Source of the DNA: a virus | UHGV virus genome: UHGV-0171044 | Length of the DNA: 36,457 bases | Direction: 5' to 3' (one strand) | Shown: one piece after another, positions 1,696-4,440 of the stretch | Numbering within the stretch: position 1 is the stretch's first letter | Layout: each line of letters starts with the position of its first letter | The notes under the pieces: model-generated | Databases searched by the model: none | What the model saw: the letters and a program-made list of their open reading frames with translations, nothing else | Told to the model about the DNA's origin: nothing | Made by a program: the position numbers and the translations under genes

Positions 1696-2319
1696 TCACT
1701 CTCCTTTGATGCGAATGCCAGCTGCGCTTGCTGATTCTTCATATGCGCGTTTAGCAGCGTTAAGGATTGCTGCCAGTGGCGTATAGCCGCCATCCATTCG
1801 GATTGTGTTGTGGATGCCAGCCATTGTGTCGCGCAATTTGCTGTGGCTAGCAGACAGTTCTGCTATGCACTTCTCTGCGGCATCGGCTCGATCTTTTTCA
1901 CGCTGGAACATTTTGTGAGTGCGGTCTATAGCTTCGATTCGTGCCGCTGATGTCTTCTGCACGGCTTCAAGCTCAACACGCAGCTTCCCAACCGTAAGAG
2001 CAATATCCTCGTTCTTCTGGTCGCGGCGTTTGATGTATTGCTGGTTTCTTTCCAGCTCATCCAGCAGCGCCAAGACGGTAGCCGGATTGGCTGCAGCGAT
2101 GAATTCAGCATTGGCCTGCTGTTCCATTTGGAAATCTTCATCGAAACCGCTTTCAGGATGCGCTCCTTCAATTCTGCAAATGGGAATATATCCAGCAACT
2201 TCACGATGAATTAGCGCATCATCACCATCAAATCGGCTCTCTCCATATTCGAGCGACCACTCGCCACACGTTGCTTTTTCTGCCTTAGCACGCAATGCCT
2301 GATAGTCAATCTCGCTCAT
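1696..2319 (-). CDS. Ea22-like early protein
   Basis: N-terminus [21 protein letters not shown] is typical of the lambdoid Ea22 family; AGGAGG before the ATG; coiled-coil middle. Confidence 0.6.
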   Translation of the reverse strand: MSEIDYQALRAKAEKATCGEWSLEYGESRFDGDDALIHREVAGYIPICRIEGAHPESGFDEDFQMEQQANAEFIAAANPATVLALLDELERNQQYIKRRDQKNEDIALTVGKLRVELEAVQKTSAARIEAIDRTHKMFQREKDRADAAEKCIAELSASHSKLRDTMAGIHNTIRMDGGYTPLAAILNAAKRAYEESASAAGIRIKGE

Positions 2320-2747
2320 TGGTTGCCTCCTTTGCGAAGCTGGGAAGCAAAGTCACGGATAGTGTCATCAAGGTCTGGGCACAACAGATGGTCAGCAAAC
2401 ATCTCTACCCCCTGCGCCCGTACTTCAGCCAGAAAAGCATCGGTGGCTGGGGTTTCAGTAACATCATCTTCCCATTCGCCAAACTCCTCACGACAAAAGT
2501 CATTAAATTCCTTCTCAGATTGCTTAAGCGAGGTATTTTCTGCAGCCATCTTCGCGCATTTAGCCTCAAGGTTATCAATCGTGATTCCAGCAGAACGACA
2601 CTCCCGCAACGCCGTTTCCAGTTTTGATTCAAGCTCACCGAACTTACGCACCAGATATTCAGCGTTTGTTTCGTTAACCCTTAAATCTCGTGGGATGCAT
2701 TTACCTTTCAGAAAACCATCCATCTCAATTAGTGACATTTGTTTCAT
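2316..2747 (-). CDS. hypothetical acidic protein
   Basis: ATG at 2747 overlaps the upstream stop as ATGA; the track start at 2765 is GTG. Confidence 0.5.
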
Positions 2748-2908
2748 TTCTTCCCACTCCGCCACATCGCATTCAGATATTTGTTGTCATTAACAGAGCC
2801 GAAACTATTTCTCTTAAGCAATTCCTCTCTCGATGGCATTGGCTTTACGCGTTGGCGAATAATCATTTCTGCCGGAAGAATGCCGGGATTGTATGCAAGT
2901 CCTCTCAT
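2744..2908 (-). CDS. hypothetical small protein (54 aa)
   Basis: internal ATG at 2908 preceded by GAGGAA at 7-nt spacing; the longer track ORF would overlap the upstream gene by about 140 nt. Confidence 0.35.
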
Positions 2909-2918
2909 GGTAAATTCC

Positions 2919-3212
2919 TCAGTCATTACTGATAGCGCCATAGCGTGAGCGGTAATTACGCAGGCGCGGGTCAATTTCAGGGAAGTGGGTATATGTGGCT
3001 TTGCGGAATGGTCGGATTGATGTCTGGTAAATTCGCTCGCGTTCTTCTTTCTCTGCAAGCCATATACAATGGCGAAATTCCTTTTCCTCTTTCGTTTCCT
3101 GCGGTAGCGACATTATCCGGTCGTAGTTTTTTCTGAATTTATCCAGCACCTCCGATACGGAATTGCCGGAACAGCGGCGCGCGTCATCCGCACCATACAA
3201 AGGCGCTGGCAT
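2919..3212 (-). CDS. hypothetical protein
   Basis: 97-aa ORF immediately downstream of ssb; ATG preceded by AGGAGA. Confidence 0.5.
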
Positions 3213-3225
3213 GTTTTTCTCCTGA

Positions 3226-3732
3226 TTAAATTGCGTGAATAGCGTGACGAGGGAAGGGGAGAGTTACTGGTGCAAAGGGTATATCGTCGTCAAAATCCAT
3301 CGGAGGTTCGTTGTGTTGTGCTGGTGATGATTGCTGCTGTGGCTTCTGTGATTGCCTGCTGGCTGCTTGTTGTTTGCTGTCGCCAATGCCGCCAAGCATT
3401 TGCATCACGCCATTAATTCCGACATGAACCTCGGTTGTGTAACGGTCTTGCCCTGACTGGTCTTTCCACTTTCTGGTTCTCAGCATTCCCTCGAAATAAA
3501 TCTGATCACCTTTTTTCACATACCGCCCAACGACCTCAGCCAGTTTCCCGGATACAGCAACACGATGCCATTCAGTCAATTCCTTTTGCTCGCCAGTATT
3601 TTTATCTCGCCATTGTTCTGACGTGGCTATTGTCAGGTTAGCGAACGCTGTTCCTGATGGTGAGTATCGAACTTCCGGGTCTTGTCCTACCCGACCAAGG
3701 ATAATCACCTTATTTACGCCTCTGCTTGCCAT
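3226..3732 (-). CDS. ssb: single-stranded DNA-binding protein with a 15-residue extension after the DDDIPF tip
   Basis: OB-fold SSB sequence ([18 protein letters not shown] ... EWHRV) and Gly/Gln-rich linker ending in MDFDDDIPF, but the frame continues [15 protein letters not shown] before the stop. Confidence 0.85.
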
Positions 3733-4440
3733 TTATGCCGCCTGTTTTAGTTCGTTAACTCTGATGTTCATTACCTGAACGCATTTAGCCTGCGCCTCCT
3801 CGTTGCCAGCCATTAATTGCCAGTCACGCTGATAACGCTCGATGAGTTTTTTCTTGTCAGTTTCTGTTGACGCATAATCGCTGAAGTCTTTCAGGATTTG
3901 TTCGCAGTCAACCGATGGAGATTTCTGGTTGGTATTTTCTGGTGATGGTTTGTTATCTGATGCTGGGATTGCCCATCCCGGCAGCGATGGAGGAAGCCAG
4001 TAAAATCCTGTTCCATCCTTGAGTTTTGCCCTGTGCCATCCCTGCTTTTTGTCGAGAGATGTTTGTGCGAAACCTTCCTCAAGGTTATACAGATACCGAC
4101 CGATTCCCCACTGAACGGCAGCACGCTTCATTGCACCTGAACGACCACCTTTTACGGCTTCTACCTGCGTGTTTTCAGCAGCATCCCATTTGGTTACCCA
4201 TTCGGAATCAATCTTGATTGATATGCCGCATTCAACTCCGCCGTTGTTGGGAATATCGCGGTATTCATTGCGCCATCCTGCTTTGCCGCAAACATCGTCC
4301 AGGCGTTTCATGATTGCCCGGTTCGTGACATAAGCCAGCACCATAGCCCACACCTTGCCATCGCGTGTTTTACCGCTTTGCTGTATTCGCCATTCGATAT
4401 CTTCGGGGCTGAATGGCTCATCGAATTTATTCAAATCCAT
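3733..4440 (-). CDS. Rad52-like single-strand annealing protein with an Erf-like C-terminal domain
   Basis: Rad52/Sak hallmark KRAAVQWGIGRYLY; the C-terminal ~60 aa (TETDKKKLIERYQRDWQL ... CVQVMNIRVNELKQ) matches the P22 Erf C-terminus as I recall it; GAGGTGA RBS. Confidence 0.8.
   Translation of the reverse strand: MDLNKFDEPFSPEDIEWRIQQSGKTRDGKVWAMVLAYVTNRAIMKRLDDVCGKAGWRNEYRDIPNNGGVECGISIKIDSEWVTKWDAAENTQVEAVKGGRSGAMKRAAVQWGIGRYLYNLEEGFAQTSLDKKQGWHRAKLKDGTGFYWLPPSLPGWAIPASDNKPSPENTNQKSPSVDCEQILKDFSDYASTETDKKKLIERYQRDWQLMAGNEEAQAKCVQVMNIRVNELKQAA

Follow-up and report, generated by a model that had tools for sequence, protein, structure and literature searches.

The SSB (single-stranded DNA-binding protein) encoded by the phage genome UHGV-0171044 carries a perfect copy of the host SSB tip, and its reading frame runs on for 15 residues past the phenylalanine of that tip. 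In bacterial genome maintenance the SSB tip serves as the central signal for recruitment, and it is thought to act only as a free C-terminus. Our analysis of this stretch of DNA (36,457 nucleotides, called the window here) showed that the extension exists, that it is conserved and that selection acts on its peptide. It is a conserved add-on that is common to many phage and plasmid replication proteins. Tip and extension together make up a composite tail, which is a conserved and portable variant of the SSB C-terminal tail specific to mobile elements. The original prediction had treated the feature as a peculiarity of one phage, and it proved to be widespread among mobile elements. As the best explanation, which we give about an even chance of being right, the 15 residues would be the second half of a conserved, portable and intrinsically disordered C-terminal docking peptide whose partner specificity has been shifted.

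The ssb gene occupies 3226..3732 on the minus strand of the window and encodes 168 amino acids plus the stop codon in the list of open reading frames. The product is an OB-fold SSB. Residues 6-104 match Pfam PF00436 (E=5.3e-36), and the protein matches PHROG 44 (E=5e-66). AlphaFold2, run with an alignment of 111 sequences, gave the SSB beta-barrel OB fold at pLDDT 80-90. Four parts can be distinguished, all on the minus strand. The OB-fold domain for ssDNA binding and tetramerisation covers aa 1-113 (3394..3732). It is followed by a Gln/Pro/Ser-rich, intrinsically disordered linker of aa 114-141 (3310..3393, pLDDT ~35), and then by the host-like acidic tip of aa 142-153 (3274..3309). The last part is the 15-residue extension, aa 154-168, encoded by the 15 codons at 3229..3273 and disordered as well (pLDDT ~30). 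Within the tip, the motif MDFDDDIPF (residues 145-153) reads from 3274-3300 with the codon of Phe153 at 3274-3276, and the TAA stop of the gene lies at 3226-3228. The prediction of MDFDDDIPF, 15 further residues and then TAA agreed exactly with both the list of open reading frames and our own reading of the DNA.

The tail of the window SSB departs from the canonical SSB C-terminus in one defining feature. The low-complexity linker is disordered, and the acidic patch and the I-P-F motif are present, with MDFDDDIPF as in E. coli SSB. The Phe is not the last residue, since 15 residues lie beyond it. Eleven tip residues are the same as the last 11 of E. coli SSB in the PDB chains. Because those chains end at the tip, the 15 residues in the window are a true extension past the canonical end. 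In the AlphaFold2 model of the 111-sequence alignment, residues 115-168 stayed at pLDDT ~30. Intramolecular docking of the tail, or an autonomous mini-fold, found no support in this model. Linear motifs that become folded when bound typically give such values; the same low confidence is equally expected of a functionless tail, and the case for function is the case made by conservation.

The extension is shared by several published phages. The window phage is P22/Sf6-like and temperate. Over its first 25 kb the window is matched best by Sf6 and further P22-like phages, and the recombination module resembles that of HK75, with 99.4% identity over a 701-nt ssb region (window 3100-3800). HK75, mEpX2, mEp235 and Salmonella phage epsilon34 all encode a 168-aa SSB with an extension identical to that in the window. 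In this comparison mEp235 was counted on gene length and 98.4% DNA identity, and epsilon34 through the g341c match, over the same region and with the same identity. In a search of 5.8 billion proteins, about 110 of the 120 best homologue cluster representatives, 66-92% identical to the window SSB, carried the extension. They came from Klebsiella, Citrobacter, Salmonella, Enterobacter, Kluyvera, Pluralibacter and Phytobacter. The 75 nt that run from MDFDDDIPF to the stop (3226-3300) were found in 297 of 5426 complete E. coli genomes, and the tail is encoded by 421 IMG/VR stretches. This recurrence in hundreds of independent records places the extension beyond chance. A mutated stop codon or a sequencing error, which had been offered as one reading of the frame, is contradicted by the identical extension in these four phages, by its presence in about 110 of the 120 clusters and by the purifying selection described below. 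The alignment with related ssb genes, which had been called for, likewise revealed a conserved extension and not a recent loss of the stop codon.

Conservation was quantified as the mean column entropy in an alignment of 179 unique extension-bearing SSBs. The OB fold had 0.62 bits, the linker 1.89 bits, the tip 0.20 bits and the extension 0.61 bits. The value for the linker marks it as fast-evolving. In the extension, P155 and L158 are invariant, H163 is conserved at 97%, and F160, P161 and R162 are each conserved at 90% or more. Substitutions were measured over the last 21 codons, which occur in 48 distinct nucleotide versions. The tip had a pN of 0.01, and DDDIPF was conserved at ~99% in the extended SSBs. 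The extension had a pS of 0.65, which is saturated, and a pN of 0.22 (pN/pS 0.34). Distant versions of the extension encode the same residues with quite different codons. Saturated pS together with low pN and differing codons indicates that the constraint acts on the peptide and not on the DNA.

These values bear directly on the idea that the extension is a non-functional read-through, produced by stop-codon loss, by sequencing error or by conservation at the nucleotide level (an endonuclease cassette, a mosaic boundary or the ribosome-binding site of the next gene). Two observations could be read in its favour. Between epsilon34 and the E. coli phages, the 48 nt of the extension region show 100% identity, while the whole ssb is only ~90% identical, and in rV5 and KE23 ORFs for HNH endonucleases extend over the final 20-29 nt. 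Against it stand the hundreds of independent records, the peptide that is shared without its codons at saturated pS, and the genes downstream of the tail-bearing ssb. The latter belong to more than 25 clusters with no relation to one another; abc2 and a DnaQ-like exonuclease are among them, and only a minority are endonucleases. In the window, the ribosome-binding site (AGGAG) and the ATG of abc2 come after the TAA of ssb, so the extension overlaps neither abc2 nor its ribosome-binding site. We regard a non-functional read-through as extremely improbable. A homing-endonuclease cassette or another nucleotide-level element, taken by itself, was ruled out by the codon divergence with conserved peptide and by the diversity of the downstream genes.

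The tail is also found far from this group of phages. Its shared pattern can be written as acidic-[IT]PF-AP-[VI]-[GT]-L-[QP]-[YF]-x-x-x-x-hydrophobic-x-x-hydrophobic. A tblastn search with the 27-residue tail returned 146 phage and 123 plasmid records, counting only those that cover at least 80% of the query. The carriers described here are a sample of these matches together with loci from a genome scan. At least four unrelated scaffolds bear the composite tail: canonical SSBs, phrog_743 SSBs, a two-OB SSB-like protein of the Vequintavirinae and Vequintavirinae primase/helicases. It is also present on SSBs of IncN conjugative plasmids, for example pNDM-ECS01. Tail-bearing SSBs of the PF00436 type occur in lambdoid/P22-like phages and in one Vibrio phage, whose SSB ends in ...DIPFAPVGLQFGKKFMHVI, as well as in the genomes of Vibrio and other marine gammaproteobacteria. 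The phrog_743 SSBs (244 aa) had no Pfam match. The same holds for rV5 ORF214 and ABPH49 AXN57958, two Vequintavirinae proteins of 414-424 aa that belong to phrog_4477 and end in ...DIPFAPVGLQYGKSRIHAL and ...DIPFAPIGLQYARHAIHAI. DnaB-type primase/helicases of Seunavirus and Mydovirus end in ...DDDTPFAPIGLQYANHAIYVL. Our results showed that the tail is a modular, optional and disordered element that sits on several unrelated scaffolds.

A profile search with the tail only, against 1.84 billion cluster representatives, gave 34 matches. All of them were C-terminal, and many were on fragments. Their named sources include Pseudoalteromonas and Tara Oceans samples, and marine variants such as APIGLQYPALLNCM, in which the second half differs, were among them. 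No host protein mimicking the tail motif was found in this search. When genomes were scanned at one per species, 32 loci with the tail were detected in Enterobacterales, Vibrio, Oceanisphaera, Glaciecola, Pseudoalteromonas, Idiomarina and Rheinheimera, two of the 32 being likely contaminated or mis-binned records. The housekeeping ssb of E. coli sits beside uvrA, and none of the 32 loci had a uvrA neighbour. Several of the tail carriers sit on plasmids or phage genomes.

The module is optional, and the joint falls in every case directly behind the Phe. Sister genomes of tail carriers often end exactly at this residue. The SSB of phage Huey is 98% identical yet ends in DEIPF-TAA, and the DNA diverges completely straight after the Phe codon. 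The primase/helicase of PVP-SE1 ends in ...DMDEDTPF followed by the stop codon, whereas those of KE23 and NINP13076 from the same genus run on with the 15-mer. Among the primase/helicase matches listed, coverage either reached residue 108 (extended) or ended at residue 93, which is the Phe, and the phrog_4477 profile also stops at the Phe. The module is dispensable in close relatives such as Huey and PVP-SE1, so its benefit is conditional. Two proteins of one phage can both carry it. In Klebsiella phage KpS11 the tail is present on the SSB-like protein kps11_041 and on the primase/helicase kps11_012, the latter ending in ...PDDDTPFAPIGLQYAKHAIYVI. In Salmonella phage NINP13076 it is likewise present on both the SSB-like protein and the primase/helicase (QXL90580 and QXL90440). 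The tails of these two phages all end in DD[IT]PFAPIGL... In the window phage, the tail is on the SSB only.

What such a tail might do can be considered from the way the canonical tip is read. On SSB partners, the terminal Phe of the tip enters a hydrophobic pocket, its alpha-carboxylate is anchored by a basic lip, and the Asp residues are bound by a basic ridge (PMC10164576). The earlier premise that partner pockets need a free terminal Phe agrees with this structural account. Since the pockets anchor the alpha-carboxylate of the Phe, the cap should disturb canonical docking. We propose that mobile elements of Enterobacterales, Vibrionales, Alteromonadales and Aeromonadales attach the peptide to proteins that are bound to ssDNA or act at the replication fork. 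The add-on would make the terminal Phe of the host-mimicking tip internal, so that the alpha-carboxylate anchored by standard partners is gone, and it would supply a second hydrophobic element. Docking with ExoI, RecQ, PriA, chi and the rest of the general host SSB interactome would be weakened. At the same time, binding would be gained to one partner that reads both halves of the motif together, as a composite short linear motif. We consider this the most economical account. We infer the role as a binding motif and the nature of the partner, and, from other complexes, the loss of canonical binding. The near-invariance of DDDIPF indicates that the tip still functions in the extended form, which suggests that both halves are read by the partner. 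An internal Phe might be acceptable to some partners. The variable last residues and the different second half of marine tails such as APIGLQYPALLNCM leave room for more than one partner or for a less specific hydrophobic function.

A simpler view is that the extension is a mask only. It would block the Phe carboxylate, and the ssDNA would be coated without recruitment of host nucleases and helicases and without any partner of the tail's own. The carboxylate anchoring described above (PMC10164576) fits this view. So does the position of the ssb between annealase and anti-RecBCD genes, which would form a module that protects recombination intermediates, and so does the nature of the carriers, every one of which is a mobile element whose ssDNA faces ExoI and RecJ of the host. 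However, any residues would serve as a mask, and the extension is conserved like the OB fold across saturated synonymous divergence. A silenced tip should decay, but DDDIPF is ~99% conserved; silencing could be reached more simply by deleting the tip; and the same module is found on primase/helicases. A pure mask is hence unlikely in our judgement. For the same reasons, namely the conserved sequence, the retained DDDIPF and the presence of the module on primase/helicases and plasmid SSBs, the original prediction of an SSB that sequesters ssDNA and does nothing else appears too simple.

The end of the extension is hydrophobic and variable, with the form [H/Y]-[A/V/C/S/L]-[I/L/V/M], and is at times one residue longer. 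A nonpolar end preceded by a basic residue (RHAIHAI, KHRIYAL) could point to a regulatory tail. The tail would then be a degron for ClpXP, ClpAP, Lon or FtsH, or a pro-peptide whose removal by a cut behind the Phe would unmask the tip at the proper moment. As a rule, E. coli proteins with nonpolar C-termini are less stable, and the MuA-type signal RRKKAI is loosely like the end of the tail. The unmasking model also predicts that a perfect DDDIPF is retained, and in IncN plasmids the ssb lies tail-to-tail with a gene for a SprT-family metalloprotease. The distribution of conservation argues against a regulatory tail. The best-conserved positions adjoin the Phe (A-P-x-x-L, then an aromatic residue), with P155, L158 and H163 the best conserved of all, and the C-terminus varies, with the lowest conservation at its very end, which is the opposite of carboxylate-anchored degrons. 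The tail has no LAA-like ending, and its resemblance to ClpX degrons is loose. We know of no protease that cuts between Phe and Ala-Pro, and no adjacent protease gene was seen at the lambdoid and Vequintavirinae ssb loci examined, in flanks of a few kb. A regulatory tail is improbable on this evidence. A beta-clamp motif (QL[SD]LF or QLxLxL) was also considered and rejected: the tail in the window contains no Gln, and in the GLQY variants the Gln comes after the Leu and not before it.

Returning to the docking peptide, the neighbouring genes bear on who its partner could be. In the window, ssb lies between a gene for an Erf-like (Rad52/22-type) single-strand annealing protein upstream (3733..4440, minus strand; annotated from the HK75, mEpX2 and epsilon34 homologues) and the anti-RecBCD gene abc2 downstream (2919..3212, minus strand; from the list of open reading frames and homologue annotation). 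We take these two genes as context only, and the Erf-like protein as a partner that is not required. The tail could nevertheless be imagined as a dedicated handle for the phage's own Erf-like annealase, as the HK620 SSB tail is for Sak4. The ssb is immediately downstream of erf in the window and at 112 of the related loci, and HK620 offers a precedent (PMC5928155). In contrast, the tail occurs without an adjacent Erf in the Vibrio phage, the Vequintavirinae, the IncN plasmids, the phrog_743 SSBs and the primase/helicases, and Huey has the same erf with an SSB that is 98% identical and lacks the extension. Genes upstream of tail-bearing ssb genes encode Erf-like, HNH, YqaJ-like and other proteins. 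A handle for Erf is quite improbable, and as a general explanation it was ruled out by this upstream diversity and by the carriers without Erf.

The docking peptide would probably have as its partner a host replication or repair protein that is conserved in this gammaproteobacterial clade. A host partner is favoured because the neighbouring genes vary and the carriers have no obvious phage protein in common. It is favoured further because the tip copies that of the host SSB, and because the carriers range from temperate phages and plasmids, which are not known to encode a polymerase of their own, to virulent phages that encode one. Large virulent phages with the tail encode their own polymerase, while lambdoid/P22-like phages and IncN plasmids, to our knowledge, encode none, so that the shared partner would not be a phage polymerase in all cases. 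In a more specific form, which is possible though somewhat doubtful, the acidic-IPF tip joined to AP-x-G/T-L-Q/P-Y/F and a hydrophobic end would be a docking code specific to mobile elements. This code would detach ssDNA-bound proteins from the host SSB interactome and would capture or inhibit one conserved host factor, with the chi-psi clamp-loader arm, PriA, DnaG and exonuclease I as candidates. Its 15-codon module would be swapped between unrelated SSBs and primase-helicases.

Phage and plasmid proteins with the composite tail form a large class under selection, in which a perfect copy of the tip is kept and is buried under a conserved add-on of 15 residues. If the add-on redirects binding, it would show how mobile elements edit the host SSB interactome, and it would provide a natural tool to separate single SSB-partner interactions. 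Editing of the interactome might serve nuclease avoidance, replisome hijack or evasion of ssDNA-based defences. The tail also has a bearing on recombineering, where compatibility between SSB and annealase matters, on plasmid establishment, as the IncN carriers include NDM and KPC resistance plasmids, and on defence systems for which phage SSBs are the trigger.

No published description of the extension came from our sequence-string searches, nor from topic searches that covered SSB-Ct and the SSBs of phages and plasmids. A PDB search with the 30-residue tail returned only canonical SSB tips and tagged myosins, and the extension was not covered by either. Compared with the canonical SSB-Ct, the window SSB is alike in its OB fold, its disordered linker, its 11-residue tip sequence and the strong constraint on the tip. 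It differs in that the Phe is internal, that 15 conserved residues follow and that the alpha-carboxylate of the Phe is absent. A related published case is the Vequintavirinae protein Bas52_0087, a two-OB "SSB-like" protein that triggers DRT10 defence, and whose FDDDIPF "C-tip" was noted as a sequence that may engage SbcB/ExoI (bioRxiv 10.64898/2026.04.29.721553). The phrog_4477 proteins (rV5 ORF214, ABPH49 and KpS11 kps11_041) appear to be of the same kind, judged from the published description. The passages that describe this tip cover the canonical form and make no mention of residues after the Phe.

In function, the closest analogues of the composite tail are the HK620 SSB tail and the shared tails of T7 gp2.5 and gp4. 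HK620 is a temperate P22-like phage with its SSB gene beside an annealase gene and abc2, as in the window phage. The tail of its SSB, NDYPPF, is needed for the cognate Sak4 annealase (PMC5928155), and so serves a specific partner. Only distantly homologous, the HK620 SSB bears another kind of tail in which the Phe is still terminal, and the composite tail, unlike that of HK620, is tied to no single type of annealase.

A second comparison can be made with phage T7. The acidic, Phe-ended tails of T7 gp2.5 and gp4 compete for one docking surface on the polymerase. The situation in KpS11 and NINP13076 is similar, as an SSB-like protein and a primase/helicase of one phage share an acidic aromatic tail. 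The T7 tails have no sequence relation to the composite tail, in which the aromatic residue lies internally, ahead of a conserved 15-mer. Unlike the T7 tails, the composite tail is also carried by temperate phages and plasmids.

The window is a mosaic as a whole. Positions 1-25000 were matched best overall by P22-like phages, Sf6 among them, at 97.6% identity over 61% coverage, and the erf-ssb-abc2 module was HK75-like (99.4%). Within the SSB encoded by this module (3226-3732, minus strand), residue 70 (3523-3525) is Arg, and it is Gln in HK75, mEpX2, epsilon34 and Huey. Arg70 was the sole amino-acid change from the HK75 and mEpX2 proteins.

For the 15-residue extension that follows the Phe of the DDDIPF tip, the DNA of the E. 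coli phages was compared with that of Salmonella phage epsilon34. Over the 48 nt of extension and stop codon (3226-3273) the identity was 100%, in contrast to about 90% across the whole aligned region (ssb and its flanks). This difference suggested that the mosaic joint at the ssb extension has recombined recently.

The short interval separating ssb from abc2 is a slot whose gene content varies (3212-3226 in the window; 1176-1748, 1171-1742 and 1131-1626 in the relatives' loci L001, L003 (epsilon34) and L004). This slot is empty in the window and in HK75. A DnaQ-like 3'-5' exonuclease of 182 aa occupies it in mEpX2, mEp235 and epsilon34. In Huey, whose SSB ends at the Phe, it contains an endonuclease of 155 aa. 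On the other side of the gene, the erf/ssb interval holds an HNH-like ORF of 155 aa in 23 IMG/VR loci.

Zinc-finger HNH-type endonuclease ORFs were also observed at the ends of other tail-bearing genes. One begins within the final nucleotides of the SSB-like ORF214 of rV5 (locus positions 2544-2572) and another within those of the primase/helicase gene of KE23 (2559-2578). The two ORFs are homologous and overlap the last 20-29 nt of the extension-bearing genes, and they may represent homing-endonuclease insertion beside conserved gene ends.

QXL90580 of Salmonella phage NINP13076 (locus positions 1150-1584; 144 aa) is annotated 'single-stranded DNA-binding protein', and its match to PHROG 4477 was confined to profile positions 259-393. 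It resembles the C-terminal portion of the SSB-like protein of about 410 aa, which would be explained by truncation or by a wrongly annotated start codon. Extended-tail SSBs were also contained in a 799-kb Chryseobacterium sp. 18061 contig (100% identity across matched tail residues 3-30 of 30) and a Parasphingorhabdus MAG. These records are assigned to Bacteroidota and Alphaproteobacteria, and their SSBs are of enterobacterial or marine gammaproteobacterial type. The records are probably contaminated or mis-binned and do not show a genuine host range.

On the IncN plasmids pNDM-ECS01 and pKPC_CAV1596-97, the extended-tail ssb and a SprT-family zinc metalloprotease gene are convergent with 30 bp between them (locus positions 1939-3290 in both), and antirestriction genes lie nearby. 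If the cap is removable, a metalloprotease gene adjoining the gene of a capped-tip SSB could be relevant.
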